64,000 nucleotides of DNA, from positions 196,093 to 260,092 of the forward strand of contig CBDCVA010000001.1 of NCBI GenBank assembly GCA_965222935.1. Reading direction: 5' to 3'. Within the stretch, counting starts at the first letter, position 1. Every line of letters begins with the position of its first letter. This document shows positions 654 through 44,274 of the stretch, piece after piece. The notes below the pieces were generated by a model, which saw only the letters and a list, made by a program, of their open reading frames with translations, had not been told where the DNA came from and did not search any database. This DNA comes from Candidatus Latescibacterota bacterium (GTDB lineage Bacteria > Latescibacterota > CBDCVA01). A program made the position numbers and the translations under genes.

Positions 654-1712
654 ATGCGCGACGAATCTTTCCGTTTTCTATCCGATCTGATCGACGCCCC
701 AAGCCCCTCCGGCTTTGAGGGCCCCGTCCGGGAGGTCTGGAGCAGCTACGTCGAGCAGTACGCCGACAGCGTCCGAACCGACCTGCACGGCAACGTCATC
801 GCGACCTTGAACGAGGGGGGCGCGCCGCGGATCATGTTCGCCGGTCACTGCGATGAACTGGGCTTCATGATCAAGTACATCGACGACGACGGGTACCTGT
901 CGTTCGCCACCATCGGCGGCTTCGATACGCAGATCATCCCCGGCAGGCGGGTCGTGGTTCACGCCGAGGGCGGGCCCATTCCGGGTGCGGTCGGCAAGAA
1001 GGCCCTGCATCTGATGTCGCCCGATGACCGCAAGAAAGTGCCGGATGTGCACGAGCTTTGGATCGACATCGGCGCGAAGGACCGGAAGGAGGCCGAGTCG
1101 CTGGTCAGCGTCGGCGATCCCGTGACCTACGATGTGCGCCTGGAGCGGCTGCGCGGGGACCTCGTCGTCTCCCGCGGGCTTGACAACAAGATGGGCGCCT
1201 TCGCCGTCGGCGAGGTGTCCCGCCTGCTCGCCGGGGCGAGCTTTGCCCCCGCTGTCTTCCTGGTCTCGACGGTCCAGGAGGAGATCGGCCTGCGCGGGGC
1301 GCGGACCGCGGCCTACGGCATCGACCCCACGGTCGGGATCGCCATCGACGTTACCCACGCTACCGATCACCCCGGTGTGGACAAGAAGTCAGCCGGTGAC
1401 GTCCGACTGGGCGGCGGCCCGGTGGTCACGCGCGGGGCGAACATCAATCCGGTGGTAGCGCGTTTTCTGATCGAGAGCGCGAAGGCCGAGGACATGCCCT
1501 TTCAGGTCGAGGGCTACCCCGGAGTCACGGGGACGGATGCAGGGGCGATCCAGGTCACCCGCGCGGGCGTGGCGACGGGCCTGGTCTCGGTCCCGTTGCG
1601 CTATATGCACACGCCGACGGAGGTCCTTTCGACCGTCGATCTGGAGAATTGCGCGAAGCTTCTAGCCGCGTTCGTCGAGGCGGTGGATGAGGAGACTGAC
1701 TTCACCCCGTGA
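654..1712 (+). CDS. M42 family aminopeptidase (FrvX/YsdC-like glutamyl aminopeptidase/endoglucanase fold)
   Basis: 352-aa ORF; M42 signature architecture (HCDELGFMI..., DNKMG, EEIGLRGA, metal-binding His/Asp/Glu pattern). Confidence 0.8.
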   Translation: MRDESFRFLSDLIDAPSPSGFEGPVREVWSSYVEQYADSVRTDLHGNVIATLNEGGAPRIMFAGHCDELGFMIKYIDDDGYLSFATIGGFDTQIIPGRRVVVHAEGGPIPGAVGKKALHLMSPDDRKKVPDVHELWIDIGAKDRKEAESLVSVGDPVTYDVRLERLRGDLVVSRGLDNKMGAFAVGEVSRLLAGASFAPAVFLVSTVQEEIGLRGARTAAYGIDPTVGIAIDVTHATDHPGVDKKSAGDVRLGGGPVVTRGANINPVVARFLIESAKAEDMPFQVEGYPGVTGTDAGAIQVTRAGVATGLVSVPLRYMHTPTEVLSTVDLENCAKLLAAFVEAVDEETDFTP

Positions 1713-1856
1713 TGCCCATACGGTTCGGCGCCGGTTGTGTCCTCTCTTATGGGGCACGGGCATCCTGACGGCCCCCGGCACCGAGTGCAGCCTGAGAATA
1801 GGAGAGACGTGACGTGCGCCGCCGCTAGTCGCCTTTGCCCCACACGAAGCCGTCCT

Positions 1857-1872
1857 CGCCCTATCGAGGGCG
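1857..1872 (+). terminator. Weak GC hairpin (cgccct-atcg-agggcg) followed by GTTT downstream of the peptidase gene
   Basis: Perfect 6-bp inverted repeat seen in sequence; short stem and weak T-tract. Confidence 0.2.
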
Positions 1873-1976
1873 GTTTCCCATAATAGCGTTCTTGCTCTGC
1901 GAGTGCTTCGATCCTGTGACCTGGAGATTTTAGGCGCGATCCAACTCCCGAAGCGTCCCTGGGAGAGTGCGCCTGC

Positions 1977-3338
1977 ATGGAGTGGAAGATGAGTGAACAG
2001 AACGAAGTACGGGGTGATTTCGACATGCGATCCGCCCGTGAGCGGGCCATCCTGATCGCAGTGCGCAGCCCCGGTGGAACCGACGGTACGGCGCTCGACG
2101 AGCGGCTCGAAGAACTGGTGCTCCTGTGCAATACTGCGGGGGTCAACGTCGTTGGAAGGGTGGTTCAGGCGCGAGAGCGGCTCGATGCAGCTACTTACAT
2201 CGGGCGGGGCAAGGTGGAGGCGCTCGCGGCGTTGGTGAAAGATCGTAAGGCGGATGTCGCGGTCTTCGAGGGAGCGCTCAGTCCCAGCCAGGCGACCAAC
2301 CTGGAGAAGGCCCTCGCGTGCAAGGTTCTCGACCGGAGCGCCGTCATCCTTGATATCTTCGCTCGAAGGGCGCGCACTCGTGAGGCGAAGGTCCAGGTCG
2401 AGTTGGCGCAGCTCGAATATCTTTACCCGAGGCTGACCCGCCTGTGGGGCCATCTCTCCCGACAGGAGGGGGGCATCGGCACGCGGGGGCCCGGCGAGCG
2501 GCAGCTCGAAGTCGACCGGCGCGCGGTCCGCAAACGGATCGAAGGCCTGCGGCGTGCGCTCAAGCGCGTGGAGGGCCGTCGTGAGATCGCGCGGCGCGGC
2601 CGCGAGGGCTGCTTCTGCGCTGCGCTGGTGGGTTACACGAACGCGGGCAAGTCTACGCTCTTGAGCGCTCTGGCTGACCGCAGCGACGTTTTCATCGAGG
2701 GCCGTCTGTTCGCCACTCTGGACGCGACCACCCGCATCGCCTGGGTGCCCGGCCAGCGGAAGGTCCTTCTGTCCGATACCGTGGGTTTCATCCGCGACTT
2801 GCCGCCCCATCTGGTCGCTTCCTTCCGCAGTACGCTCGAGGAGGTGCGAGAGGCGGACCTGTTACTTCACGTCGTGGACGCCAGCCACCCCGCCGCGTCG
2901 CAGCAGATGGCGACGACCGACGCCACGCTGGAAGACCTCGGCGTGGCGGAGCACCCGACCCTCACGGTCCTCAACAAGATCGACCGTCTAGCGCCGGACG
3001 CCCCGGTCCTGGATGACCTCGCCGAAGGCCGGAAGGCCGTGCCCGTCTCCGCGATCCAAGGCATGGAACTGGAGGCGCTGCGCTGGGCCATCGCTGGGGC
3101 GCTCGACGCCGAGTCGGTGGAACTGGACCTGCGTATCCCACAGCGCGAGGGGGCTCTCGTGGCGGCCCTACACGGGGCGGGCGATGTGCTCGCGGTCAAC
3201 TACGAGGCCCAGGACGTGCTCGTCACGGCTCGGCTTCAGCGAGGGCGCGCCGAGGCCCTCAGGCTTTCTCGATGGACCACGGACTCCCATACGGTCCGGG
3301 AGGGTGCAGTCACAAGCGGAGTGGGCGATGCGAACTAG
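1977..3338 (+). CDS. hflX: GTPase HflX
   Basis: 453 aa; HflX N-domain plus G-domain (GYTNAGKSTLL, DTVGF, NKID); alternative start possible at 2025. Confidence 0.9.
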   Translation: MEWKMSEQNEVRGDFDMRSARERAILIAVRSPGGTDGTALDERLEELVLLCNTAGVNVVGRVVQARERLDAATYIGRGKVEALAALVKDRKADVAVFEGALSPSQATNLEKALACKVLDRSAVILDIFARRARTREAKVQVELAQLEYLYPRLTRLWGHLSRQEGGIGTRGPGERQLEVDRRAVRKRIEGLRRALKRVEGRREIARRGREGCFCAALVGYTNAGKSTLLSALADRSDVFIEGRLFATLDATTRIAWVPGQRKVLLSDTVGFIRDLPPHLVASFRSTLEEVREADLLLHVVDASHPAASQQMATTDATLEDLGVAEHPTLTVLNKIDRLAPDAPVLDDLAEGRKAVPVSAIQGMELEALRWAIAGALDAESVELDLRIPQREGALVAALHGAGDVLAVNYEAQDVLVTARLQRGRAEALRLSRWTTDSHTVREGAVTSGVGDAN

Positions 3339-5028
3339 CGCGAGGTGGGGAGGACGTCCGGCGCTTGGCCTCCCACTGCTCGCGGTTCTGGCGCTCGGTC
3401 TTGTGGGGGTGCAGGCGGCCTCCGCGGGGGGGCAGGTAGCTGCCAAGTGCGGGACGCCGCACGTCCTGGACGCAATGCGGCGGCTGGGGCCGGCGGCATT
3501 CGCCAAACGAGCACAGACGCCGAAGCAACGCCAGTACGACTCGCCAGGCGGCTTTTTCCGCATCCAGTACGATATGGAGGGTCGCGACGCGGTCTCGCAT
3601 GAGGACAGCGATCAGGACGGGGTCCCCGACTACGTGGAGGCCGCCGCTGAGGCCTTCGACCGAGCGCTCCAATTGGAGGTTTTTGAGCTCGGCTACCGCT
3701 CGCCGTTTGTGGGCGAGGAACGTGGTGACGAGCGGTACGAGGTCTTCATCCGCGATCTCGGCGCGCCCGGCTACTACGGACTGACTCACCCGCAGACCGG
3801 GCCAGACCGTGCCTTCACCAGCTTCATCGAGGTGGACAACGACTTCCTCGACCCGATCTACCCCACGAGGGGGCTGGATGGACTGCGCGTCACCGCCGCC
3901 CACGAGTTCTTCCACGCCATTCACTTCGCCTACTATCTGAACACGCGCCTCGACGCACTCTGGTGGATGGAGATCACCGCGACGTGGATGGAAGATGTGG
4001 CCTGGGATTCGATCAACGACTACTACCATTATGTCAGGCCACGGCGTGTGTCGCCCTCCTCCTTTTCCGACGCGTTCTTCGACGTGCCGGGTGCTCCGCT
4101 GGACCATACGAATGGGTATTACGAATATGGCGCGTCCGTCTTCGGACATTTCTTGGCGGCGCTTCATGGGCGTGACATCATCCGGGCCTGCTGGGAGGCC
4201 ATCGGTGAAGCTCAGCGCGGCGACGTGACCGTGATTGACGGCGTCCTGCCTGGAGGGATGGCCGCTGCCGTCCCCGAGTTCGCGGTCTGGAATTACTTCA
4301 CAGGTCCGCGCGCGCGCCCCAGCCAGTTCTATCCCGAGGGCTCGGCCTACGCCGAGGTATGGATCCCGCCCGGTCGGATTCACCATGCGTATCCTGTCTC
4401 CGGAAGCGGCACCGTGGATCACCTCGGCTCTCACCACACGCGCTTCATCGCACCGGACGAGCCGGCCACGCTGGTCTTAGACCTTGAGTTGGATCCTCGA
4501 ACCTCCTGGATGGTCCAGGTCGTGCGCATCACCGAGGGTCGCCCCACTATCGCGCCTCTGGACCCATCGATGCCGTTCCGCTTGACGACGGGACTTCTCG
4601 ACGAGGAGATCGTCCTGATCTCGACGGCGGTCAATCTTTATGGCCACGATTTCACGTACGTGTACAGCGCGCACCTCGACCTCACTCCGGTGGATGTCGG
4701 GGAGCCGACGGTGCTCGTCTGGCCCGGCGACACCAACAACGATGGCATCGTGGGCATCCGAGATGTGCTGCCTATCGGCATCTTCTGGGGAGCTGAGGGG
4801 CCGCCGCGCACGGACGGTGACATCTCTTGGTCCGCCAAGGGAATCCGTCCCTGGGAGGAGAGCCAGGCCGCGTTCGCCGACGCCAACGGCGATGGGATGG
4901 TTGACGCCCGCGATGTCGAGGCCGTCAGAGCCAACTGGAGCAGGGTCCGGCCGCGTGAGGGTGATGCGGCTGTAGCTAAACTCGCCCCGAATGCGCAGCG
5001 AGCGGCTGGGTCACCCTTGGAGCGATGA
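3327..5028 (+). CDS. Secreted zinc metalloprotease-like protein (HEFFHAIH motif) with C-terminal dockerin-like tandem Ca-binding repeats
   Basis: ATG at 3327 overlaps the hflX stop; signal peptide (LPLLAVLALGLVGVQAASAGG); HEXXH motif HEFFHAIHF; C-terminus carries two D-x-N-x-D-G-x5-D segments (DTNNDGIVGIRD, DANGDGMVDARD), typical of dockerin modules. The track ORF 3013-5028 has a spurious 5' extension. Confidence 0.7.
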
Positions 5029-5576
5029 GGCTTACGATGGAAGAATGGAGTCCTGGCCGGTGGGTGGCGGCGCTGCTCGTTGCCCTAGCCGCGCTTGGGC
5101 TCGTCTCGTGCGGAGGGGATGGGGGACCGACCGGTCCCGCCATTGGCCCCACTCCGGAGGGGCTCGTGCTGCGTCTGACGCCGCCCTCTCAGACCGTGAC
5201 CAAGGGGACGACTTTCAGCGCATCGGTGCACCTGTTCAACGCGCAGAGCGTCTTTGGCAGCGCCTTCGAGATCGGGTTTGATCCCTCGAAGCTGGAAGCC
5301 GTCGGCGCCGAATCGGGTCCGTTTCTGCCCGATGACCCCATCTTCTTCAGCTTCTTCGAGCCCGGTACCGCCTCGATAGCTGTCGTCCGCAAGGCGCCAG
5401 AGAGGGCGATCTCAGGCTCGGGCGAGCTGGCTCGCCTTGAGCTGCGCGCGCTGGCGCAGGGCGACGTCGAGTTGAGGTTCCGTCCCCAGATGACCGCGAT
5501 CGAGGACCCGACGGGCGCGCCGATTCCAGGGCGGGTTGATCTACAACACGAGGGGGCGGTGGTGATCGTCCAATGA
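5025..5576 (+). CDS. Cohesin-domain lipoprotein
   Basis: ATGA start/stop overlap with the upstream gene; lipoprotein signal (ALAALGLVSCGG); single ~140-aa domain with a cohesin-like beta-sandwich pattern (TVTKGTTFSASVHLFNAQSVFGSAFEIGFDPSKLEAVG ... GSGELARLELRALAQGDVELRF). Confidence 0.6.
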   Translation: MRLTMEEWSPGRWVAALLVALAALGLVSCGGDGGPTGPAIGPTPEGLVLRLTPPSQTVTKGTTFSASVHLFNAQSVFGSAFEIGFDPSKLEAVGAESGPFLPDDPIFFSFFEPGTASIAVVRKAPERAISGSGELARLELRALAQGDVELRFRPQMTAIEDPTGAPIPGRVDLQHEGAVVIVQ

Positions 5577-8377
5577 TCGTGCCGAGGCGCGGCGGGGCTT
5601 TTGGGTGGGTGGCCTGTGCTCTGGCAGTCCTCGGAACCCAGGGCGCGGTTCGGCCCGCTTGCGCCCAATTCTTCTTCGGCAAGAACAAAGTCCAGTACCG
5701 GACGTTCGACTGGCACATTCAGCGGACCGAACACTTCGACATCTACTTTTACCCTGAGGAGGCGGAGCTAGCCTCGATAGGCGCCGCTTACGCCGAGGCC
5801 GCCTACCGCGATCTGGAGCGCAAGTTCTCCTACACCGCGCGTGAGCGCATCCCCGTTATCTTCTACAGTTCGCCGCTTCACTTCCAGGGCACCAACACCA
5901 TCCTGGCCTTTCTACCCGAGAGCGTCGGGGGTTTCACCGAATTCGCCAGGGGCCGCGTCGTCGTGCCCTTCAATGGCTCGCTTTCCCGCTTCGAGCGCAT
6001 CATCCGCCACGAGCTCGTCCACGCCTTCATGCATCAGAAGCTCCGGGCCGTGCTCCGCCGCCATCGCATCCGTCGCGGTGCCCGCGCTCCGCTGTGGTTC
6101 TCCGAGGGGCTGGCCGAGCACTGGTCCGGTTCCCAGAACGCCCAGGGCGAGATGATCCTGCGCGACGCCGTTCTCACCGGGCACCTGGATGGACTGGACT
6201 ATTTGGCGCGGGTTGCGGGCACGTTCCAGATGTACAAGGCGGGCGAATCGCTGGTCGGGTGGATGGGTCGCACGCTCGGCGACGAAGTGCTGCTCGCGAT
6301 TCTGGAGGACTGGTGGAAGGCGGACGACTTTAGCACAGTCGTCGCCGCTGCGACGGGCCGGCCCTTAGGCGAACTGGCAGAAGCGTGGTGCTACGGGCTG
6401 AAGAAACGCGTCCTGCCGCTATTGGCCGACCACGATGAAGCCAGCCACGCAGCCAGACGCCTCACGGCGGTGGGCCTGGCCACGGGGCCGGAGGTCGTGC
6501 CCTCCTCGGTGATGGGCGATTCCGACCAGTTCCTGTTCTTTTCCAACTACCGGGGCTTCCCCGGCATCTACGTGGGCGAGGTTGGAGATAAGGACCAGGT
6601 CGGCCATGTCCTCCTCGAAGGCGCCCGCAGCGGATCGATGGAATCGCTCCACCTGCTCCAGACGGGGCTCTCGATCAGCAGCGACGGGCGGCTGGCCTTC
6701 GTCGCGAAGTCGGGCCCGCGCGATGTCCTGACCCTCTTCGACCTTGGGAGCCGGCGGGTCACCGCGCGCCTGGGCTTCCCCTCACTGGTGACGCTCCGCT
6801 CTCCATCGTGGTCGCCCGACGGCGGGCGGCTTGTTTTCAGTGGTGAGGGCCTAGACGGCTTCACCGACCTCTACGTTGTCACTGTGGAGAATGGTGCGCT
6901 GGAGCGTCTGACCGAAGATCTCTACAGCGACAGGAATCCCGCTTGGTCGCCCGACGGCAAGCGGATCGCTTTCGACTCCGACCGGCTTTCTTCGGGCACA
7001 ACCCGCCACGTCTTTGTTCTCGACGTCGCCACGGGGAGCGCCGAGCCTCTCGTGGGTGGCGCCGCGAACTTCGTCACACCCGTCTGGTCTCCCGATGGCT
7101 CCCGACTCGCCGTCGCCTCTGACCGTGATGGCACGTTTAACCTCTACCTCCTGGACCTTGACGGCCGTCTGGCGCGCGTCACTCGCGTGCTTACCGCCGC
7201 GCGTGATCCAGCGTGGCTGGAGGGCGGTGACGGTCTTCTGTTCACGGGTTACGAGGAGGGCCGAATGGAGGTCTATGCGGCAAGGATCGATTCCCTCGAG
7301 TGGGAGGCCCCTCTCCCACCCCTTGCGGCCGATTCGGGCTGGGAGCCGCCTAGCCTTGCAGGACCGTCGGCGGCGACGGTGTTTGCCTATGTGCCGCGTT
7401 TCGATCTCGACATCGCGCAGACGCAGATTGCGCAGGACGCGCAGTTCGGGGCCGTCGGCGGCCTGAACATTGCCATAAGCGACATGCTCGGCGACGATCG
7501 CTACTACTTCACCCTCGCCAGCGGCTCAAGCCGCAGTGCCACCGGCAGAGGCGGGATGAATATAGGTGTAACGCATGTCTCCCTGGGGCGGCGCACGGAC
7601 ATGGCCTTCGGCATCTTTCACCTGCATGGCGAGTTTGATGCTCCGGTTGAGGGCCTGTTCAGGGAGCGCCGTTTTGGTGGCTTCGTGATGGCATCGCGTC
7701 CGCTCTCCCGTTTTCAGCGCCTGGAGTTCCAGGGAACCTTTCGCCAGTCCGATCGCCGCTGGAAGGACGGCTCGGGCAGGGTCCGGCGGGCGCTCTTGCA
7801 CACGACGGGTGCCGCCTTCGTGCGCGACACGAGCTTGTGGAGCGCGACGGGTCCCATTGATGGCGATGGTCTGCGTGCGTCGGTGGCTCATACGATTGCT
7901 CTGGAATCGGCGAAGGTGCACTACCTCTCGCTGGAGCTGGACGTACGCCGCTATTTTCGCTTCACGCGCCGGGCTGCCGTAGCGACGCGCGGGCTTCTGC
8001 GCACGAGCCTTGGCCGTGAGCCCGAGCGCTTCGCCATGGGTGGAAGCTGGACGCTGAGAGGCTACCCTTGGCGCTCCATCGAAGGACGCTACCTGGGCCT
8101 ATGGACCAACGAGCTGCGCTTCCCGCTCGTTGATACCCTTGCGCTTCGACTACCCTTCGGCGGGTTGCGGATCGACTCCATTCGCGGCGCTCTTTTCGTC
8201 GATGCCGGGAGCGCCTGGGAGCGTGACCGGCCTGAGGTCCTAGGCAGCTTTGGCGGCGGCTTTCGCATCCGTTTAGGTCCGTTCCTCGTGCTGCGCTACG
8301 ACATCGCCAAGCGCGTGACCTCCGATGGCGTCTCGGGGCGGACCTTCACAGACCTCTTCTTTGGCTGGGATTTCTGA
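5573..8377 (+). CDS. Outer-membrane multidomain protein: N-terminal HEXXH peptidase-MA-like domain, PD40/TolB-like beta-propeller, C-terminal Omp85 (surface antigen D15) beta-barrel
   Basis: ATGA overlap with the upstream gene; signal peptide; HELVHAF motif; repeated WSPDG(K/G/S)R PD40 units; C-terminal Omp85 hallmarks (LRGY..., FVDAGSAW, GGGFRIRLGPF, terminal ...FFGWDF aromatic residue). Confidence 0.7.
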   Translation: MIVPRRGGAFGWVACALAVLGTQGAVRPACAQFFFGKNKVQYRTFDWHIQRTEHFDIYFYPEEAELASIGAAYAEAAYRDLERKFSYTARERIPVIFYSSPLHFQGTNTILAFLPESVGGFTEFARGRVVVPFNGSLSRFERIIRHELVHAFMHQKLRAVLRRHRIRRGARAPLWFSEGLAEHWSGSQNAQGEMILRDAVLTGHLDGLDYLARVAGTFQMYKAGESLVGWMGRTLGDEVLLAILEDWWKADDFSTVVAAATGRPLGELAEAWCYGLKKRVLPLLADHDEASHAARRLTAVGLATGPEVVPSSVMGDSDQFLFFSNYRGFPGIYVGEVGDKDQVGHVLLEGARSGSMESLHLLQTGLSISSDGRLAFVAKSGPRDVLTLFDLGSRRVTARLGFPSLVTLRSPSWSPDGGRLVFSGEGLDGFTDLYVVTVENGALERLTEDLYSDRNPAWSPDGKRIAFDSDRLSSGTTRHVFVLDVATGSAEPLVGGAANFVTPVWSPDGSRLAVASDRDGTFNLYLLDLDGRLARVTRVLTAARDPAWLEGGDGLLFTGYEEGRMEVYAARIDSLEWEAPLPPLAADSGWEPPSLAGPSAATVFAYVPRFDLDIAQTQIAQDAQFGAVGGLNIAISDMLGDDRYYFTLASGSSRSATGRGGMNIGVTHVSLGRRTDMAFGIFHLHGEFDAPVEGLFRERRFGGFVMASRPLSRFQRLEFQGTFRQSDRRWKDGSGRVRRALLHTTGAAFVRDTSLWSATGPIDGDGLRASVAHTIALESAKVHYLSLELDVRRYFRFTRRAAVATRGLLRTSLGREPERFAMGGSWTLRGYPWRSIEGRYLGLWTNELRFPLVDTLALRLPFGGLRIDSIRGALFVDAGSAWERDRPEVLGSFGGGFRIRLGPFLVLRYDIAKRVTSDGVSGRTFTDLFFGWDF

Positions 8378-8400
8378 GCCATTGCCGCCTGCAATCGGTT

Positions 8401-9540
8401 GTGGCTGAAGTGCTCTGTCCCGAGCGTCGTTGGTCGAGGGGCGTACGGCTTACCCTAGTAGCCGCCGGATTTCTCGCTGGTTCCGGTTGTGCGCCTGCGG
8501 GATGGCGCTGCGCACCATCGGTGGGCGTGCCGGTCGGCTCCGCGTACGCCGTGGTGCCACCGCTGGTTCTGAAATGGCGCCAGGACGTGGGTATCAGCGT
8601 GACCGCGCCGCTTCGCCTCGCCGATGGCCTGCTTTTCGTCGGGACAGGCGATGGTAGGCTCAAGGTGTTGGATGCTGCAACGGGCCACAAGTGCGGAGAA
8701 CTGCTCGTTCGCGGCGCGGCGGCGCGTGCGGCGCCTGGGGTGGCAGCGGCGCACCTGATCGTCGTTTGGTCCAATGCCGGGGAGAGCGTACGCGGAGTGG
8801 ACCGGCGTACGGGCGTGCAGATGTGGAGCCACGACGTCGGCGACTGCTCCGCGACGCCGGTCGTCGCTCGTGGTTACGCGGTCGTTGTCGGGGAATCGGG
8901 TCAGGTTCTGGCCGTCGATCTGGCAACGGGTGAGCAGGTGTGGCGCGCAACCGTTGGGGGCCAGGTGCGGTCCGCTGTGGCCGGCGCCGAGGGCGTCGTG
9001 ATCGTCGGGGATAGAAGTGCGCTTCGCGCTTTCGCTCTGGAGGGCGGCGATCCAAAGTGGCGCATCGAACTGGGAGCAGCGGTGAGCTCTCGCATCGCCG
9101 TCCTGGGCGATGTCGCCTTTGTTGCGACGGCGGCCGGGGAGCTGTGGTCGGTGGAGATCGGGACGGGCGCGCGGCGCTGGGGCGTACGGGTCGCCGAGGC
9201 CGCCATCCGGTCGGGCCCCGTGGTGATCGGGTCGTCTGTCATCATTGGCGCCGACGACCGGCGGGTCGTGACGCTCGATGCGGCGACGGGGAACGTGGTG
9301 TGGGATGCCGGCACGGACGGGGTTGTGCGTGGGGCCCCGGTGGCTGATGGGGATGTCGTCTATGTCGCCGCCGGCGACGGAAGCCTTATAGCGTTGGCTC
9401 TGGATGATGGCCGCAGGCTCTGGGAGACGCGGCTCTCGGCACCGGCACTGACCGATCTGGCGCTGGGCCATGGCGGGCTTTTCGCAGGCGCGGACGACGG
9501 CAACGTCTACTGCTTCGATGTCGGGGCCGGGGTTCCTTGA
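8401..9540 (+). CDS. PQQ-repeat beta-propeller lipoprotein (BamB-like)
   Basis: GTG start; lipobox-like LAGSGC; multiple PQQ-type repeats (VWR..., WSHDVGD..., VVWDAG...). Confidence 0.65.
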   Translation: MAEVLCPERRWSRGVRLTLVAAGFLAGSGCAPAGWRCAPSVGVPVGSAYAVVPPLVLKWRQDVGISVTAPLRLADGLLFVGTGDGRLKVLDAATGHKCGELLVRGAAARAAPGVAAAHLIVVWSNAGESVRGVDRRTGVQMWSHDVGDCSATPVVARGYAVVVGESGQVLAVDLATGEQVWRATVGGQVRSAVAGAEGVVIVGDRSALRAFALEGGDPKWRIELGAAVSSRIAVLGDVAFVATAAGELWSVEIGTGARRWGVRVAEAAIRSGPVVIGSSVIIGADDRRVVTLDAATGNVVWDAGTDGVVRGAPVADGDVVYVAAGDGSLIALALDDGRRLWETRLSAPALTDLALGHGGLFAGADDGNVYCFDVGAGVP

Positions 9541-9623: not shown

Positions 9624-10454
9624 GTGATGATGGCGAATAGCCCGACAGATCCGGCGGTCGTCTGCGACGAAGAGGCCCATAAGGCTCGGGTGTTGGCGCG
9701 TGGCAATCTGCCGCGCCACGTGGCTATCATCATGGACGGCAACGGCCGCTGGGCTGAGCAGCGTGGGCTGCCGCGCACCGAAGGCCACAGCGCCAGCGTC
9801 GCGGTGGTCAAGGATGTGGTGCGGGCCGCGGCAGATCTGGAGCTAGAGGTCCTGACGCTATACACGTTCAGTGTCGAAAACTGGCGGCGCCCTCCCGGTG
9901 AGGTGTTCTTCTTGATGAGCCTGTTGCGCGACACGCTCAATGATGAACTACCGGAACTGCATGCGGAGAACGTCCGGTTCCGCACGATTGGGCGCGTCTC
10001 ACGGCTGTTCCCCGCCAGCCGCGCTGCGGTTCGTAACTCGATCGAGACCACCAAGGACAACACGGGCCTCGTCCTCAACCTGGCGCTGAGCTACGGGGGC
10101 AAACTTGAGATCGTGGACGCGGTCCGGGCCATCAGCCGGAAGATCGAGCGAGGCGAGCTCGCCTCGCACCAGATCAACGAACGGCTCATCGCCGCCCACC
10201 TCTACACCGCCGATCTGCCCGATCCCGACCTGCTCATTCGGACATCGGGCGAGATGCGCATCTCCAACTTCATGCTCTGGCAGTTGGCGTACACGGAGAT
10301 GTGGGTGACCGATGTCCTCTGGCCGGATTTTTCGCGCCACGATCTCTACGAGGCCATCGAGAGCTATCAGACCCGCGAGCGACGCTTCGGCCGCACCTCT
10401 GATCAACTCCGGAGAGGACGATCACAGGCCCCAGCGGTCTCGGTGGCCAGCTGA
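9624..10454 (+). CDS. uppS: Isoprenyl transferase / undecaprenyl-diphosphate synthase
   Basis: IIMDGNGRWA, cis-prenyltransferase fold motifs. Confidence 0.9.
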   Translation: MMMANSPTDPAVVCDEEAHKARVLARGNLPRHVAIIMDGNGRWAEQRGLPRTEGHSASVAVVKDVVRAAADLELEVLTLYTFSVENWRRPPGEVFFLMSLLRDTLNDELPELHAENVRFRTIGRVSRLFPASRAAVRNSIETTKDNTGLVLNLALSYGGKLEIVDAVRAISRKIERGELASHQINERLIAAHLYTADLPDPDLLIRTSGEMRISNFMLWQLAYTEMWVTDVLWPDFSRHDLYEAIESYQTRERRFGRTSDQLRRGRSQAPAVSVAS

Positions 10455-10492
10455 CGTCCGCTCGGGCACGACGACGTCCGGCTCGATCCAGC

Positions 10493-11326
10493 GTGCCCAT
10501 TCCTACGGTGCGGCAGCCCGACTCAGTGCTTCTACGGCGCGGCGTGGCAGGCGCTTTGCTCGTCGCAGTGGTCGCGTGGGCAGCCGTGCGGGGCGGGCTG
10601 TTTTTCCTGGTTCTGCTCGACCTCATCCTGGCTGGAGCGGCGCTCGAACTGATCGCCCTTACGGGGCTTCGCCCGGCCCTATGGCATCGCGTCGCGCTCG
10701 TCGCTCTGGCGCTCATGCCAGGGTGGCTTTGGGTGACCGGCACGGCGTTGGAGCTGGGACTGGGGTTGACGGTCCTCGGTGCTCTGGTCCTGGCTCTTGT
10801 CACCGCGCCGCACGATGGCCTCCGTTCGGCGGGCGCTCACCTGCTCGTCGTCGCCTACGTCGGCTGGCTGGGAGGGTTGTTGGTGGGTCTGCGGTGGGAA
10901 GACCCTGCGTCGCCGGGAGAGAACACCATCCTTTTTACCTTCGTGGTGCTCTGGACGAGCGACACGGTCGCTTATCTGGTCGGGAGCAAGTTTGGTAAAC
11001 ACAAGCTCACGCCCCGTCTCAGCCCTGGTAAATCGGTCGAGGGCCTCGTGAGTGGATTCGTGGGCGCTTGGCTTGTGGCGGGCCTCTGGTGTTTCGCCGT
11101 TCCGGGCGCCGCTACGCTCGCCTACTGGTGGGGGCTTGCTACGCTGCTTGCTGCTGCCGGGTTCGTGGGCGATCTGTTTGAATCGGGCCTCAAACGCGCT
11201 GCGGGGGTCAAGGACACCTCCAACGTGATCCCCGGCCATGGAGGCCTGCTCGATCGCTTCGACTCCGCGCTCTTCGCGGCGCCGGCCCTTGCGTGCTGGC
11301 GCGCCTGGCTTGGAGTGCCTGGATGA
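10493..11326 (+). CDS. cdsA: Phosphatidate cytidylyltransferase
   Basis: Polytopic membrane protein; C-terminal CdsA signature (SxxKRxxxVKDxSxxIPGHGGxLDRxDS). Confidence 0.85.
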   Translation: MPIPTVRQPDSVLLRRGVAGALLVAVVAWAAVRGGLFFLVLLDLILAGAALELIALTGLRPALWHRVALVALALMPGWLWVTGTALELGLGLTVLGALVLALVTAPHDGLRSAGAHLLVVAYVGWLGGLLVGLRWEDPASPGENTILFTFVVLWTSDTVAYLVGSKFGKHKLTPRLSPGKSVEGLVSGFVGAWLVAGLWCFAVPGAATLAYWWGLATLLAAAGFVGDLFESGLKRAAGVKDTSNVIPGHGGLLDRFDSALFAAPALACWRAWLGVPG

Positions 11327-12504
11327 AGCGCTTGGTGATTTTGGGGTCCACGGGCTCCATCGGCACGCAGACGCTGGAGGTGGTCCGGGCGCTGGCTCCT
11401 TCTTCGATATCCATCGTTGGGCTAGCCGCTAGGCGCAATGTGACGGCACTTGTTGCGCAGGCGCGCGAGTTTCGCCCCAAGGTGGTGGCGGTGGCGGACG
11501 AAGCCAGTGCCGCCGCTGCCGCCGCTGCACTTCGGCCGTTGGGTATCACCGTCTGTTCTGGTCCTGCGGGGGTTGAAGCCGCCGCAGCGGAGGCCGAGGC
11601 GGACCTCGTCGTCAACGCGCTGACGGGTTCTGACGGCCTCGCGCCTACGGTGGCCGCGATTGAGGCCGGGTGTGACGTGGCGCTGGCGAATAAGGAGACG
11701 GTCGTCATGGCCGGGCGGTATGTCCTCGGCCTCGCGCGGCGTCGGGGCGTGACGATCCTTCCCGTAGACAGCGAACACTCCTCCCTCTTTCAGCTCCTCG
11801 CTGGCCGCGACCCCGGTGAGGTGAGCCGGCTCATTCTGACGGCCTCCGGCGGTCCATTCGTGGATGTCGACGCGGATGCGCTTGCGCATGTGACCGTAGA
11901 GGCGGCGTTACAACACCCCGTCTGGGACATGGGCGACAGGATCACGATCGATTCCGCGACGCTCATGAACAAGGGGCTCGAAGTCATCGAAGCGCGCTGG
12001 CTCTTCGATATCCCAAGCGACCGTATTGACGTCGTGGTCCATCGCCAGTCGGTCGTTCATGGCATGGTCGGGTTGACTGACGGGACTTGCATGGCGCACC
12101 TGGGTGTTCCGGATATGCGCGCTCCGATCCAGTACGCGCTGACGTATCCCTTCCGCGAGCCGTCGCTAGCCGCTCGCCTGGACATGCACACTCAGCTTTC
12201 TCTGACTTTCGAACGGCCTGATCTTGCGCGTTTTCCGTGTCTCCGCCTGGCGTACGAGGCGTTGCGCGCCGGGGGTACAACGCCAGCCTGCCTCAACGCG
12301 GCCAACGAAGTGGCTGTGGGAGCTTTCCTGGTGGAGCGTTTGCCCTTTCTGGGAATCCCCGCCGTGGTCGAGCGCGTTCTGGAGGCGCACCAGCCGATGC
12401 CGGATGACGAGCTGGGGATCATCCGAATGGCCGACCGCTGGGCGCGCGAGCGTGCGCTCGAGGCCGTCGCGTCGAGCGCCAACGCCGCTGTGTCGGTGGG
12501 TTGA
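11323..12504 (+). CDS. dxr: 1-deoxy-D-xylulose 5-phosphate reductoisomerase
   Basis: Start MKRLVILGSTGSIGTQTLEVV (NADPH-binding); the track ORF begins 30 nt upstream at an in-frame Met. Confidence 0.9.
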   Translation: MKRLVILGSTGSIGTQTLEVVRALAPSSISIVGLAARRNVTALVAQAREFRPKVVAVADEASAAAAAAALRPLGITVCSGPAGVEAAAAEAEADLVVNALTGSDGLAPTVAAIEAGCDVALANKETVVMAGRYVLGLARRRGVTILPVDSEHSSLFQLLAGRDPGEVSRLILTASGGPFVDVDADALAHVTVEAALQHPVWDMGDRITIDSATLMNKGLEVIEARWLFDIPSDRIDVVVHRQSVVHGMVGLTDGTCMAHLGVPDMRAPIQYALTYPFREPSLAARLDMHTQLSLTFERPDLARFPCLRLAYEALRAGGTTPACLNAANEVAVGAFLVERLPFLGIPAVVERVLEAHQPMPDDELGIIRMADRWARERALEAVASSANAAVSVG

Positions 12505-13817
12505 ACGTGCTGGCGTCACTCCAGACCATCGCGGGCTTCGTTCTCATCCTGGGGCCTCTCATTTTCGTCCACGAGTTGGGCCATTTCCTGGCCGCGAAAT
12601 GGGCCGGCATTCGCGTCGAGCGCTTCTCTCTCGGCTATCCGCCCAAGATGTTCGGCATCACCATAGGCGTGACGGAGTACTGTATCTCCTGGATCCCCTT
12701 CGGCGGCTACATCAAGATGGCCGGCGGTTCCTTCGAAACAGGCATTGCCACGGGCGCTCCCGACGAGTTCGCTTCCAAACCCATCGCCGCTCGTCTCGCC
12801 GTTCTGGCGGCGGGTCCGTTGGCGAACATCTTCATCGCGTTTGCTCTTTTCTTTTTCATGGCCGTGGCGTTTGGTGCGCCGACTTATTCCACCACACGCC
12901 TCGGCACCGTGGAGCCCGGTTCGCCCGCCGAACGCGCGGGCCTACGGACTGGCGACCGGATCGTCGCGGTTGGGGGCGAGGCCGTTGTGGACTGGGAGGA
13001 ACTGGCTAAGGGGCTGATGATGGCCTATGCCGAGCCCGTGATGCTGCTGACTGAGCGGGAGGGAGAGCGGCTGGAGATGCTGATCCCGGCGGTTAGCGGC
13101 GACGAACCCTTCGGGATTGAGCCCTGGATTCCGGCGGAGATCGGACGCCTCGAACCCGGAGAGCCAGCGGAGGGGGCGGGCCTAAGGCCAGGTGACCTCA
13201 TCGTCGAGGTGGCGGGTGAACCCATTGCGCAGTGGCGCGACCTCTACGAGGCCGTGCGAGAGCGGCCGGAGTTTCCCACGTCCGTCGTGTGGCGGCGTGG
13301 CGATCAGCAGTTGAGCACGGAAATTGTGCCGCGGGCTTTCAAGGTACCCGGAGAAGCCGACGGAGAGGAAAGGGTAGTGGGCCGCCTGGGTGTCTACCCT
13401 ATGCTGGAGATTAAGCGCGTCGGTCCGATCTCGGGTCTGGTCGTGGCGGGACAGCAGACTTACCTGATATCGTCTCTGATCCTGGATTTCCTCCACCGCG
13501 CGCTCACGGGCAGGGCGTCGAAGGAGGAACTGAGCGGCCCGGTCATGATCATCCGCATGGCTGGCGAGAGCGTGCGCGGAGGGTTTACGTCGCTCTTGAG
13601 CTTCATCGCTTTGCTCGGCGTCAACCTCGGGCTGCTCAACCTCTTCCCGCTTCCCGTCCTGGACGGCGGCCAGATGGTCATCCTTGGCGCTGAAGCCGCC
13701 ATCCGGCGCCCATTTTCGCTGCGCGTGAGGCTGGTCATCCAGCAGGTCGGGCTTGCGTTTCTAGTCCTGCTCATGTTGCTCGTTACAGTCAACGACGTAG
13801 TGCGTCTGTTCAACTAG
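12501..13817 (+). CDS. rseP: RIP metalloprotease RseP (site-2 protease)
   Basis: HELGHFLAA HEXXH in TM1, PDZ domains, LDGG motif near the C-terminus; overlaps the dxr stop. Confidence 0.9.
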   Translation: MNVLASLQTIAGFVLILGPLIFVHELGHFLAAKWAGIRVERFSLGYPPKMFGITIGVTEYCISWIPFGGYIKMAGGSFETGIATGAPDEFASKPIAARLAVLAAGPLANIFIAFALFFFMAVAFGAPTYSTTRLGTVEPGSPAERAGLRTGDRIVAVGGEAVVDWEELAKGLMMAYAEPVMLLTEREGERLEMLIPAVSGDEPFGIEPWIPAEIGRLEPGEPAEGAGLRPGDLIVEVAGEPIAQWRDLYEAVRERPEFPTSVVWRRGDQQLSTEIVPRAFKVPGEADGEERVVGRLGVYPMLEIKRVGPISGLVVAGQQTYLISSLILDFLHRALTGRASKEELSGPVMIIRMAGESVRGGFTSLLSFIALLGVNLGLLNLFPLPVLDGGQMVILGAEAAIRRPFSLRVRLVIQQVGLAFLVLLMLLVTVNDVVRLFN

Positions 13818-13849
13818 CTCGAACCCCGACAGCGCAGAAGAAACGCCTC

Positions 13850-14278
13850 TCACGGCACCGGAGCCGCATGGGTCGGCTCCGGCCCCGGTATGGAGAACGA
13901 CCGCCGGGCGGCGGCCACGCGCAGCTCATCGCGCACCCTCGCTAGAATGTGCTCCCAGCGCTGGGGATCCTCCCCCACGTGCTCCAACGCGCGCCAGACC
14001 TCCGGCATTGAGCGGGCCACTTCGCCGAAGAGCCGCTCGTGCTCCGCCTTCATCTGACCGGGCACGGTCGCGTAGTCGGACGTGGCGAGCAGGGCTTTTG
14101 CCAATAGAAGTGCCAGCACCTCGTCGCTCATGGAGAAGGGCTCACAGCAGGCGATACAGGCCGCCATAAGGGGTCCCAGAAGCGCACTCATGCGCCACGA
14201 ACTGCTCACACGATAGGTGAATATAATGGCACTAACCCCATTAAAGAATACACTATACCTCAAAACTCCTCTTGACAA
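13850..14278 (-). CDS. Hypothetical protein
   Basis: 142-aa ORF convergent with rseP, no recognisable motif; its real start may be an internal Met. Confidence 0.3.
   Translation of the reverse strand: MSRGVLRYSVFFNGVSAIIFTYRVSSSWRMSALLGPLMAACIACCEPFSMSDEVLALLLAKALLATSDYATVPGQMKAEHERLFGEVARSMPEVWRALEHVGEDPQRWEHILARVRDELRVAAARRSFSIPGPEPTHAAPVP
13858..13882. terminator. Strong GC hairpin (ccggagccg-catgggt-cggctccgg) between convergent rseP and a minus-strand ORF
   Basis: Perfect 9-bp inverted repeat seen in sequence; no clear T-tract. Confidence 0.3.
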
Positions 14279-38931: not shown

Positions 38932-40653
38932 ATGAGACAGTCCGACCTGCTTGTGCGGATCGGGGGCGAAGGCGGTGAAGGCGTCATCTCTTCGGGTGAG
39001 ATCCTCACCAAGGCGATGGCGCGGGCCGGCTGGAACGTGTTCACGTTTCGCACCTATCCCGCTGAGATTCGCGGGGGTGTGGCGATGTTTCAGTTGCGCG
39101 TGGCCTCGCAACCCATCTACTCGCAGGGCGGTAAAGCCGACCTGTTCATTGCCTTCAATGACGAGGCTCTGGAGCATTACCTTCCCGAACTGCGTCCCGG
39201 TGGTACGCTGTTGTTCGATCCTGAGCAGGCACACGCCCCTGAAGAGGGCGCCTACCACGTCCTTCCAGTGCCCCTCAACCGGCTGGCGCGCGAGGCCGGC
39301 AGTGTCCTGACCAAGAACATCGTCGCTGTCGGCGCGCTTTCCAAGGCGTTCGACGTGGACCCGGAGATCTTCCGTCAGCTCATCCGGGACCAGTGGCTGC
39401 GCAAGGGCGAGCGGGTCGTCGAGATGAACTACCGCGCGCTCGAAGTCGGTCGCCAGGCCGTCGTCGAGGCAGGGGGCGCCGAGGGAGTCGCTCTGGAAGC
39501 TGCCCCGCCCAACGGCGAGGAGCTCATGATCATCAGCGGCAACCAGGCGGTGGGCTTGGGCGCTATCGTTGCCGGCTGTCGCTTCTGCGCCGGATATCCC
39601 ATCACGCCTGCGACGCCGCTGTTTGAGTTTCTGATTGCAGAATTGCCGAAGTTCGGGGGAGGGACGTTCCAGGCCGAGGACGAGATGGCGGCACTGGGAG
39701 CGTGCCTGGGCGCCTCGTTCTCGGGCATCAAGGCGATGACTTGCACGTCGGGTCCTGGCATTTCACTGATGAGCGAACTCATCAACCACGCCTCGATGCT
39801 TGAGCTGCCCGTCGTCATCGTGGACGTCCAGCGCGCAGGACCCTCGACGGGCATGCCCACCAAGACTGAGCAGGGTGATCTGAAGTTCGCCATCTACGGC
39901 ACGACGGGGGAATCCCCCAGGATCGTGCTGGCTCCCACGTCGGTGGAGGACTGCATTTATCAGACGGTCCGCGCGTTCAACCTGAGCGAGCGTTATCAGA
40001 TGCCGGCCATCATCCTCAGCGACCAGGCGATGGCATATAGGACCCAGAACGTGAAGTTGCCCGACCTGTCTATGATCGATGTGGATGAGCGGATCCTGGC
40101 CGGCGATGGCGAGCTTAACGATTACAGGCGCTTCAGGCTTACCGAAACGGGCGTCTCGCCGATGACCGTTCCGGGGATGGAGGGCGGCGCCTATTTGGCG
40201 ACAGGTCTCGAGCACGACGAGACGGGCGCGCCCAAGTACACTCCTGAAGCTCACAAGACGATGACGGCCAAGCGGTTTCGAAAGCTGACTACACTCGCCG
40301 ACGAACTCGCCTCGGATCCCCAGCCGTACTACGGTTCAGATAAGGCTCGCATCGGCGTGATCGGCTGGGGCTCAACCGAAGGCGCGATCCGCGAGGCTCG
40401 ATACAGGGCGGAGGAGGCCGGCATTCCGATCAAGCACTTGCATCCGAGGGTGGTCTCTCCGCTGCCGGAGAAGCGCATCGCTGAGTTTCTCCGGGGACTA
40501 GAGACGATCATCATCCCCGAGGAGAACTTCACCGGGCAGTTCGCGCATTTCGTAAAGGCGAAGTTCGGGATCAGGCCCATAGAAGTTCACAAGGCGGAGG
40601 GGATCCCTCTCACACCCGAAGAAATCTTAGACGCGATTGAGGAGCATGCCTAA
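38932..40653 (+). CDS. 2-oxoacid:ferredoxin oxidoreductase subunit alpha with fused gamma domain (set 1)
   Basis: N-terminal gamma-type domain (GGEGGEGVISSGEIL); the alpha domain belongs to the pyruvate/2-oxoglutarate ferredoxin oxidoreductase family (KorA-like). Confidence 0.85.
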   Translation: MRQSDLLVRIGGEGGEGVISSGEILTKAMARAGWNVFTFRTYPAEIRGGVAMFQLRVASQPIYSQGGKADLFIAFNDEALEHYLPELRPGGTLLFDPEQAHAPEEGAYHVLPVPLNRLAREAGSVLTKNIVAVGALSKAFDVDPEIFRQLIRDQWLRKGERVVEMNYRALEVGRQAVVEAGGAEGVALEAAPPNGEELMIISGNQAVGLGAIVAGCRFCAGYPITPATPLFEFLIAELPKFGGGTFQAEDEMAALGACLGASFSGIKAMTCTSGPGISLMSELINHASMLELPVVIVDVQRAGPSTGMPTKTEQGDLKFAIYGTTGESPRIVLAPTSVEDCIYQTVRAFNLSERYQMPAIILSDQAMAYRTQNVKLPDLSMIDVDERILAGDGELNDYRRFRLTETGVSPMTVPGMEGGAYLATGLEHDETGAPKYTPEAHKTMTAKRFRKLTTLADELASDPQPYYGSDKARIGVIGWGSTEGAIREARYRAEEAGIPIKHLHPRVVSPLPEKRIAEFLRGLETIIIPEENFTGQFAHFVKAKFGIRPIEVHKAEGIPLTPEEILDAIEEHA

Positions 40654-40655
40654 CT

Positions 40656-41537
40656 ATGACCGCTCTCGTGGCAACACCGGCTCCGACCCGAAGTCCTGCC
40701 AGCTATAAAAGCGATCTCAAGCCCATCTGGTGCCGCGGTTGCGGCGATTTCGGGGCGCTCTCAGCCTTCTATAAGGCGCTCTCCACACAAAACGTCGATC
40801 CCAACGATCTCGTCTTCGTCAGCGGCATCGGCTGCTCCGGGCGTTTCCCCCACTTCGTTGAGACCTACAGCTTTCACTCGACCCACGGCAGAGCGCTTCC
40901 CGTGGCCACGGGGCTCAAGGTGGCGCGCCCGGAGCTTCCGGTGGCGGTGGTAGGCGGCGACGGCGACGGACTGGCCATCGGCATGGGGCACATCCCTCAC
41001 GCCGCACGGCGCAACGTTGACATCACTTACGTCCTTCTGGACAACGAGATCTATGGGCTGACCAAGGGACAAAGCTCGCCTACGACGCCCTTCGGCGCCC
41101 ATACCCCCGGGGGCATGGGGGCAACGAAGGATGGGCATTGGGAAGAGAGGCTGGACCCGTTGGCCATCTACATTGCCTCGGGGGCGACCTTCGTCGCCTG
41201 CGGCTTCACCGGCGTTCCAGCCCAACTGGCCGGCATCTTCTCGGCGGCGCTGGCCCACAAGGGCTTTTCCATCGTTCATACGTACAGCCCGTGCACGACC
41301 TTCAATCACTTTCTGACCTTCGACAGCATCAAGGAGCGCCTCGGCCAGATCCCCGAGGACCACGACCCCACCGACCGGCTGGCTGCGATGCGCTATGCCC
41401 TCGATCACGAACAGATCTGGACCGGCATATACTACCAGGTCGAGCGGCCGACGCTGGATGGCATTGTGGATGCCCAGCGGCGCGAGGTCGGGGATCGGCG
41501 GACCGCGCTCTTGGACCTCTTGAGGGGGTTTGAATAG
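40656..41537 (+). CDS. 2-oxoacid:ferredoxin oxidoreductase subunit beta, TPP-binding (set 1)
   Basis: CPGCGDFG motif and TPP-binding GDGD...N pattern (KorB-like). Confidence 0.85.
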   Translation: MTALVATPAPTRSPASYKSDLKPIWCRGCGDFGALSAFYKALSTQNVDPNDLVFVSGIGCSGRFPHFVETYSFHSTHGRALPVATGLKVARPELPVAVVGGDGDGLAIGMGHIPHAARRNVDITYVLLDNEIYGLTKGQSSPTTPFGAHTPGGMGATKDGHWEERLDPLAIYIASGATFVACGFTGVPAQLAGIFSAALAHKGFSIVHTYSPCTTFNHFLTFDSIKERLGQIPEDHDPTDRLAAMRYALDHEQIWTGIYYQVERPTLDGIVDAQRREVGDRRTALLDLLRGFE

Positions 41538-41645
41538 CCGAAGGAGCCGGGTGCGTGAGTTGTGCGGCATCGCGCCTGGCGGGTGCCTGGCATACGTAGT
41601 GGCGAATATACAAATCATGGCGAAACGATCCCGGAGTCGAGTCCT

Positions 41646-43409: not shown

Positions 43410-44274
43410 AATCCTGCCTGTCAAGGATTATAAAGGACTGGTAGACCCCGACTGGTGCCCCGGCTGCGGCGACTTCGGGGTACTCCGGGCGCTGCAAACG
43501 GCCGCCAGCCAGTTGGCGATCCACCCTCATCGGCTCGTGGCCGTCTCCGGCATAGGCTGCTCTTCGAATCTGCCCGGGTTCATTCACGCGTACGGTTTTC
43601 ACAGCCTGCACGGTCGTGCGCTCCCCGTAGCAACGGGCATCAAGCTGGCCAACCCCGATCTCAACGTCGTTGTGGCCACGGGTGACGGGGATGGCTACGG
43701 GATCGGCGCGGGTCACTTCGTCCACATCCTGCGGCGGAACGTGGACATGACCATGATCGTGATGAACAACCAGATCTATGGGCTCACCACCGGCCAGGTG
43801 TCGCCCACGAGCGAGAAGGGAATGAAGAGCAAGTCCACCTTGGGCGGCACGTTGGAGGAAGCGTTCAATCCGCTGGCTCTTGCGCTTGCGGGCGGCGCCA
43901 CTTTCGTTTCCCGCTGCTTCTCGGGTGATGCCAAGCACATGGCCCAGGTGCTCAAGCGCGCTATCAGCCACAGGGGCTTTAGTCTGGTGGACGTGTTCAG
44001 TCCCTGCGTCACCTACAACAAGATCAACACTTACGCGTGGTTCAAGGAGCGCGTCTACAAGCTCGAAGAGGCCGACCACGATACCAGCGCCTTTCAAACA
44101 GCGATGCTCAAGGCCATGGAGTGGGGGCATGAGATCCCGCTCGGGGTCTTCTACGAGCGCGAAGCGCCCACCTACGAGGATGAGGAACCAGCCCTGGCGG
44201 ACGGTCCGCTGCCTGAACGCGAACTGGGCATGACCCAGGAGCAGGGCATGGCGGTGCTCAAGGACTTCATGTAG
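43393..44274 (+). CDS. 2-oxoacid:ferredoxin oxidoreductase subunit beta, TPP-binding (set 2)
   Basis: CPGCGDFG plus TPP motif; overlaps the preceding alpha gene. Confidence 0.85.
   Translation: MSPSVEILPVKDYKGLVDPDWCPGCGDFGVLRALQTAASQLAIHPHRLVAVSGIGCSSNLPGFIHAYGFHSLHGRALPVATGIKLANPDLNVVVATGDGDGYGIGAGHFVHILRRNVDMTMIVMNNQIYGLTTGQVSPTSEKGMKSKSTLGGTLEEAFNPLALALAGGATFVSRCFSGDAKHMAQVLKRAISHRGFSLVDVFSPCVTYNKINTYAWFKERVYKLEEADHDTSAFQTAMLKAMEWGHEIPLGVFYEREAPTYEDEEPALADGPLPERELGMTQEQGMAVLKDFM

Follow-up and report, generated by a model that had tools for sequence, protein, structure and literature searches.

Pairing of cohesins with dockerins outside cellulosomes is already known. In the Cloacimonadota, which belong to the Fibrobacterota-Chlorobiota-Bacteroidota (FCB) group, a cellulosome-like complex has been proposed, for which peptidase cargos and scaffoldins with the C-terminal domain (CTD) of the type IX secretion system (T9SS) were inferred (PMC8542988). 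For outer-membrane proteins of the Omp85 type, Heinz and Lithgow defined in 2014 a WD40-Omp85 subfamily and likened it to a BamA-BamB fusion (PMC4104836). Here we present the analysis of a locus where genes of both kinds stand side by side. It lies in a 64,000-nucleotide stretch of DNA from Candidatus Latescibacterota bacterium (GenBank assembly GCA_965222935.1, contig CBDCVA010000001.1, positions 196,093 to 260,092 of the forward strand), which as a whole is called the window below, and it comprises four consecutive genes: A for a secreted metalloprotease with a C-terminal dockerin, B for a small cohesin lipoprotein, C for a WD40-Omp85-type outer-membrane protein, and D for a BamB-like protein. 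The best-supported reading of the sequence comparisons is that A-B is an instance of a recurrent two-gene module, defined by the subtype of its dockerin and not by its enzyme. For the region as a whole, we consider it reasonably probable that two independent modules are merely co-linear here, A-B being a cargo with its anchor and C-D a pair of the FCB group.

The dockerin protease and its cohesin lipoprotein

Gene A (3328..5028, forward strand) encodes 566 residues and belongs to the MXAN_6640/DUF6055 family of HExxH metalloproteases. It scores 210.2 bits against the NCBIfam model MXAN_6640_HExxH (NF045524, cut-off 140) and covers model positions 1-289 of 290 with its residues 79-373 (3562..4446, forward strand). 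This catalytic domain contains the motif HEFFH (3901-3915), whose H192, E193 and H196, together with E215, show no variation in an alignment across 16 homologues; E215 is the probable third zinc ligand, and A, a Sec-exported protein, is probably catalytically active as a gluzincin-type metalloprotease. Near the C-terminus, a dockerin module (about residues 460-545, 4705..4962) matches Pfam Dockerin_1 (PF00404) at 26.3 bits, with a gathering score of 22.9, and holds two calcium-binding loops of the form DxNxDGxxxxxD, namely DTNNDGIVGIRD (residues 468-479, 4729-4764) and DANGDGMVDARD (residues 518-529, 4879-4914), all on the forward strand. The preliminary description of the window had seen a secreted HEXXH protein with a two-loop dockerin, and both family models bear this out. 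The two loops are 50 residues apart, compared with about 33 in canonical dockerins, so the module is a variant, long-linker subtype. It is followed by only about 20 residues, with no helical spacer among them. No T9SS CTD is found in A, either as a Pfam match to Por_Secre_tail or FlgD_ig or with a purpose-built CTD profile, and this profile finds no CTD protein in the whole window, while it detects at E = 2e-17 the orthologues of A on two marine-sediment contigs, L094 and L095.

In the MXAN_6640/DUF6055 family (PF19527) the C-termini are mostly of T9SS type (FlgD_ig, Por_Secre_tail), and a subset of members carries dockerins. The closest non-self homologues of A, P0123 and P0124 (37-38% identity), have the same 50-residue spacing and also a T9SS CTD, and their genes likewise come after hflX. 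On L094 (2-2748) and L095 (106-3332), the order of hflX followed by a dockerin-bearing MXAN_6640 protease is kept, with overlapping stop and start and with 37-48% protein identity. Canonical dockerins, with loops 33 or 27 residues apart, end a Gemmatimonadota-like subset of the family, and no cohesin is found near the homologues with such 27- or 33-residue spacing. Some of these canonical-dockerin homologues lie in a conserved cluster (L082, 7292-13663; L083 and L084, 7310-13744; L083 comes from the window's own sample), which consists of a DtxR-like repressor, the HExxH-dockerin protein, an M24 peptidase, an Ig_CycH protein, a protein of about 400 residues without family match and a FadL/Toluene_X-like barrel, and which adjoins feoAB and a heavy-metal ATPase. 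The Ig_CycH proteins were considered as divergent cohesins and ruled out by Pfam and by a cohesin profile.

Gene B (5025..5576, forward strand) encodes 183 residues, or 179 from an alternative start at 5037. It has a lipobox, LVSC, with the cysteine at position 29 (5100-5111, forward strand), and the rest is essentially a cohesin beta-sandwich (about 5157-5573, forward strand), which matches Pfam Cohesin (PF00963) at 31.2 bits (gathering score 24.1, E = 2.8e-7). The AlphaFold (AF2) model, with a predicted local distance difference test (pLDDT) score of 85 overall and about 95 within the domain, shows the nine-stranded jelly-roll of cohesins. The top 50 Foldseek matches of this model in the PDB are all cohesins, with E down to 2.5e-10 and target-normalised TM scores of 0.77-0.81; the best is 2xdh, a non-cellulosomal cohesin of Archaeoglobus fulgidus, and the OlpA/OlpC complexes 3ul4 and 4dh2 are also among them. 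The earlier description of B as a lipoprotein with a single cohesin domain is in accordance with these results. A word-indexed search with B returns one match, a relative of 94% identity, whereas an exhaustive HMMER search gives 970 relatives, many with repeated cohesins; they include multi-cohesin proteins with T9SS CTDs and proteins with both cohesin and dockerin. The lipobox cysteine is invariant in 10 small homologues (128-200 residues). In B itself, Gly stands at position +2 and a single acidic residue follows the cysteine.

The link between the two genes comes from other genomes. We picked five small homologues of B by size alone and inspected their neighbours, and in all five the directly adjacent gene encodes a secreted dockerin protein: a beta-helix protein (L088), a 1980-residue NHL/PD40 protein (L089), a 629-residue protein (L091), a T9SS protein (L092) and a PKD/Big_9 protein (L093). 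The 50-residue spacing, with flanking WPGD...NW motifs, is shared by six dockerins beside small cohesins (those of the window, L086, L088, L089, L091 and L092), and the pattern WPGD...PxG..W...W...ADxNGDG...NW is common to A, L088, L089, L091 and L092. By tblastn, the dockerin of A is 39-46% identical to the dockerins beside other small cohesins (E = 1e-16 to 1e-18); outside the dockerin, A and those cargo proteins are unrelated. On L088, both genes flanking one small cohesin lipoprotein (1-186 and 1479-5318) carry a long-linker dockerin, and one anchor may serve two cargos there.

In the reverse direction, metagenome contigs were scanned with an alignment of the long-linker dockerins alone, giving 80 loci (L096-L175), of which 72 are evaluable and 8 lie on contigs that end too early to judge. 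A cohesin open reading frame (ORF) is directly adjacent in 28 loci and a cohesin is part of the same polypeptide in 17, so that the same protein or the next gene holds a cohesin in 45 of the 72; 3 have one elsewhere in the locus, and 24 have none. The adjacent ORFs are nearly all immediately downstream on the same strand and are mostly small with a clear lipobox, and many have acidic residues after the cysteine (CEDDE, CEEE, CDGDDK), runs which resemble the export signal of Bacteroidota surface lipoproteins. The cargos scanned, ten in number, are all built as a variable domain followed by dockerin, spacer and Por_Secre_tail, where the variable domain is an arylsulfotransferase, a WD40 propeller, a DUF6055/MXAN_6640 protease, CotH (three times), peptidase M30, LVIVD, gingipain-like C25 or Laminin_G. 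As in A-B, an HExxH/DUF6055 cargo is paired with a cohesin lipoprotein at one further locus (L108). Of 86 dockerin ORFs whose C-termini are complete, 56 have a CTD by the purpose-built profile, and few of the others end soon past the dockerin as A does. About 30 dockerin proteins have no T9SS-type CTD, and in most of these another kind of C-terminal region, about 245-270 residues long, takes its place. The 17 proteins with dockerin and cohesin in one polypeptide could permit self-association or chain formation.

Because this dockerin subtype recurs beside small cohesin lipoproteins with cargos of quite different catalytic domains, B is probably the cognate anchor for the dockerin of A, on strong though indirect evidence from genomic association. 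The claim of the preliminary description that the cohesin lipoprotein anchors the dockerin protease gains support from the same recurrence. In the mechanism that we propose, A would leave the cytoplasm via the Sec pathway, its long-linker dockerin would bind the single cohesin domain of B in a manner expected to depend on calcium, and B, lipid-anchored through Cys29, would hold A non-covalently at the outer membrane, on a face that is considered below.

The WD40-Omp85-type protein and its BamB-like neighbour

Gene C (5573..8377, forward strand) encodes 934 residues, which the Pfam and NCBIfam profiles, a structural model and Foldseek together divide into three parts. An HExxH domain, helical/beta in the model (residues 44-300, about 5702-6472), has the motif HELVH with H146, E147 and H150 (6008-6022); a TolB-like propeller with PD40 and TolB matches comes next (residues 303-571, about 6479-7285); and an Omp85 barrel with the L6 motif LRGY completes the protein (residues 599-932, about 7367-8368), all on the forward strand. 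The profile scores are E = 4e-21 for PD40, 34.7 bits for Omp85 (threshold 24) and 111 bits for TolB (TIGR02800), and the match to Peptidase_MA_2 is weak. Comparison with PDB profiles finds TolB at 2e-25, and Foldseek likens the propeller to TolB and the barrel, of about 16 strands, to BamA/TamA. No POTRA domain is matched in C, and against the BamA equivalog TIGR03303 it scores 22 bits, far from the cut-off of 297. Across 20 homologues, the HELxH residues (H146, E147, H150), E178/E182, and R829 and G830 of the L6 loop are invariant. The three parts that had been assigned to C earlier are confirmed in this way. The preliminary description had not recognised the gene set as a described system; C, however, is not of an undescribed kind, the architecture having been catalogued as WD40-Omp85 in 2014 (PMC4104836).

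Gene D (8401..9540, forward strand) encodes a BamB-like beta-propeller of PQQ repeats and, as the preliminary description had it, follows C as a probable lipoprotein. It scores 134.6 bits against PQQ_2 and 132.7 bits against BamB TIGR03300, whose equivalog cut-off is 285. Its start is uncertain, the public gene call beginning at about 8521; in the window its lipobox, LAGSGC, departs from the canonical form, and a clear lipobox is present in 35 of 61 homologues.

More than 4000 full-length proteins are homologous to C, with 36-45% identity. We sampled the neighbourhood of C at 80 genome loci from Ignavibacteria, Bacteroidota, Latescibacterota, Zixibacteria, KSB1, Calditrichota, Gemmatimonadota and others, and found a D homologue directly 3' of C in 62 of the 80, across FCB-group phyla and usually after a gap of a few nucleotides. 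None of the 80 loci has a homologue of A or B within 10 kb of C by tblastn, and none has a cohesin there by a profile derived from 347 cohesin domains. Upstream of C, these genomes carry unrelated housekeeping genes, such as those for phosphoglucose isomerase, a radical SAM protein, a SprT-like protein, DapF, TatC and RelA. With D next to C in 62 of the 80 loci and no A, B or cohesin within 10 kb, C-D is by these comparisons an old, self-contained pair of the FCB group, and A-B its lineage-specific neighbour. On one Gemmatimonadota chromosome (L057, 15538-19931, reverse strand), two proteins with canonical C-terminal dockerins are encoded 3-7 kb downstream of C-D; the locus has no cohesin, and the proximity is probably coincidental.

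As for the topology, the N-terminal domain of the Omp85 protein PlpD is periplasmic by experiment (PMC11116518), and by analogy of Omp85 topology the soluble domains of C should be periplasmic too. C and D may have a role in envelope proteolysis or protein quality control.

Gene order, probable independence of the two pairs and side of the membrane

The four genes are tightly packed behind hflX (1977-3338, forward strand). The ATG of gene A is at 3328, which is also its start in the public gene call, and A overlaps the end of hflX, with its stop codon at 3336-3338, by 11 nucleotides. The preliminary description had placed this start at 3327 and had noted ATGA overlaps at 5025-5028 (A/B) and 5573-5576 (B/C). 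Both overlaps are present in the sequence. However, the overlap of A with B depends on the choice of annotation, because B has a second ATG at 5037, with GAGG at 5027-5030 ahead of it at 6-nucleotide spacing, and the public gene call starts B there, leaving A and B 8 nucleotides apart. Overlaps of 4 nucleotides are frequent in compact operons and unremarkable alone. Promoter and terminator scans give signals at chance level only, with no terminator-like site above chance between A, B, C and D. Downstream of D come uppS, cdsA, dxr and rseP, then mraZ/rsmH and a cell-division cluster (9624-14000 onward). In many proteobacteria bamA is located downstream of rseP; near the uppS-rseP cluster of the window the only Omp85-type gene is C, upstream of uppS, a placement not kept in the 80 other genomes.

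The window is part of a metagenome contig of 1.42 Mb. Its G+C content is 62-68%, and its nearest named homologues, in Gemmatimonadota and Latescibacterota, have only 39-45% identity. A protein matching the LptD_2 profile is encoded at 54689-57061, and therefore the organism is diderm, as was stated before. Profile and loop scans find no cohesin or dockerin in the window beyond A and B. In addition, two consecutive gene sets for 2-oxoacid:ferredoxin oxidoreductase (POR/POR_N, 38932-40653 and 41562-43409) occupy 38932-44274.

The preliminary description had joined A-B functionally to C and D. In this explanation the four genes make one outer-membrane machine, where the cohesin lipoprotein tethers A to or beside C and D for surface display or proteostasis. 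It draws on the close packing with its ATGA overlaps and no terminator-like site, on the envelope nature of all four products, on the lack of a T9SS CTD in A, which therefore needs another partner or route, and on the order hflX-A-B-C-D-uppS being kept in a relative. This relative is, however, the only one, and its proteins are 94-96% identical, so that the co-conservation is at near-species level and carries no information. At larger distance the trio is not co-conserved: A and B are missing at all 80 C loci, which have no cohesin within 10 kb and have unrelated upstream neighbours; a C-like gene is present at 0 of the 80 dockerin-module loci; and the orthologues of A on L094 and L095 keep the synteny with hflX without C. 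The four-gene machine is not supported by these comparisons, and we regard it as quite improbable; tight gene packing in this window does not signal one system. An equally slight chance is given to the explanation that there is no interaction between the cohesin-like and the dockerin-like domain, which stand together incidentally, the dockerin being a generic calcium-binding module that is stabilising or carbohydrate-associated. In fact, dockerin-like modules often occur with no cohesin nearby, as at 24 of the 72 evaluable long-linker loci, and the Pfam scores of A and B are just a few bits above threshold; but the 45 loci with a cohesin in the same protein or adjacent gene, the dockerin neighbour at five of five small cohesins, and the specificity of the association to the long-linker subtype all speak for a real pairing.

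An explanation that is unlikely, though less so than these two, takes B as a periplasmic chaperone, inhibitor or holding factor for its dockerin cargo and not as a surface anchor. Diderm lipoproteins face the periplasm by default, and B has Gly at +2, with a single acidic residue behind the cysteine; A bears a Sec signal and nothing recognisable that would take it across the outer membrane; and one dedicated partner gene per cargo recalls secretion chaperones. On the other hand, most cargos are T9SS substrates destined for the cell exterior, many small cohesins have acidic runs after the cysteine, and related cohesins occur within proteins bearing T9SS CTDs. A role of B as a protease inhibitor is rejected, since B-like proteins track the dockerin and not the catalytic domain. 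For the anchor reading of A-B the same features bear on the side of the membrane: the CTDs of analogous cargos, the CTDs on scaffoldin-like cohesin proteins and the acidic post-cysteine residues favour the cell surface, and by analogy these modules point to anchoring there. A has lost the CTD, and therefore the tether may lie on the periplasmic face here, which is a real alternative at this locus.

Several observations weigh against two independent modules with B as the anchor of A. A is without the helical spacer and the T9SS CTD that its orthologues on L094 and L095 and all ten scanned analogues possess. Cohesin adjacency is frequent and not obligatory, 24 of the 72 evaluable long-linker loci having no cohesin nearby, and the A orthologues of L094 and L095 have neither a cohesin nor a C-like gene beside them on their short, 3.8-kb contigs. 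The ATGA overlap of B with C and the uninterrupted A-B-C-D stretch, free of terminator-like sites, mean that A-B may be co-transcribed with C-D or linked to it functionally in this lineage; and the lineage is thinly sampled, with a single relative above about 45% identity.

A wider version of the two-module reading is put forward more tentatively, and we hold it to be somewhat less than evenly probable. It takes A-B as a CTD-less offshoot of a widespread and apparently undescribed FCB-group anchoring system, in which each T9SS cargo is held at the surface by its own adjacent small cohesin lipoprotein. The long-linker dockerin would sit just upstream of the sorting domain in cargos such as C25, M30 and MXAN_6640 peptidases, CotH kinases and arylsulfotransferases, and retention by a cohesin lipoprotein would, without a covalent bond, replace or supplement attachment to anionic lipopolysaccharide (A-LPS). 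Separately, C would be a periplasmic protease borne on Omp85, with its HExxH domain and TolB-like propeller set on the barrel, and D its BamB-like lipoprotein partner.

Significance and comparison with known systems

If the A-B pair binds, cohesin and dockerin would serve as an address label, one for each cargo, by which diverse secreted enzymes are attached to the diderm outer membrane via lipoproteins, a role extending beyond a scaffold for polysaccharide degradation, and through the link with T9SS cargos that secretion pathway would gain a new step of retention. The short, adjacent, matched pairs would also supply surface display with a natural set of orthogonal cohesin-dockerin parts. As to C-D, it is a large uncharacterised Omp85 family, with thousands of members in the FCB group and an enzymatic domain made evident by the invariant HExxH residues. 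This makes it a concrete subject for studies of how the outer membrane is built and quality-controlled. Our literature search, which reached few papers in subscription journals, found none on MXAN_6640 and no characterised member, none on Omp85 with PD40 and a metalloprotease, none on cohesin lipoproteins with T9SS cargo, and none on a module in which a cargo with its long-linker dockerin ahead of a T9SS CTD has one lipoprotein to itself.

Among the cohesin-dockerin systems, A-B is like OlpA and OlpC of Clostridium thermocellum, where an envelope-anchored single-cohesin protein also meets an enzyme with a two-loop calcium-binding dockerin. Unlike in that type of anchoring, B is a lipoprotein of a diderm, with no S-layer homology (SLH) or sortase anchor. 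A multi-cohesin scaffoldin differs in the number of cohesins, A-B having one cohesin per cargo and this in the adjacent gene. Cellulosomal dockerins, for their part, have loops spaced by about 33 residues against about 50 here, and most relatives of A add the helical spacer and T9SS CTD. With a single cohesin, a metalloprotease as cargo, and no glycoside hydrolase or carbohydrate-binding module seen among the scanned proteins of the window, the locus does not resemble a cellulosome, which agrees with what the preliminary description had argued. In its own family (NF045524/PF19527), A matches the full model and keeps HExxH...E as other members do, but ends in the long-linker dockerin only, where most members have a T9SS-type CTD.

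Cargos with a type B CTD of the T9SS have adjacent, cargo-specific partner genes of the PorP/SprF type. The A-B module is similar to these in having a dedicated envelope partner in the next gene, most module members being type A CTD proteins. It is different in that the partner is a small cohesin lipoprotein and not a PorP-like barrel, and A has no CTD.

BepA, a periplasmic metalloprotease, may offer a functional analogy for C. The BamB-like lipoprotein as the conserved neighbour of C recalls the BamA-BamB couple, although the scores of both C and D fall well short of the BamA and BamB equivalog cut-offs. C is like the WD40-Omp85 subfamily in having a TolB-like propeller before the Omp85 barrel and no POTRA domain, which the published description matches (PMC4104836). 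What sets C apart is the domain with invariant HELxH...E ahead of the propeller; the word 'peptidase' is absent from that paper, where this HExxH domain therefore seems to have escaped notice.

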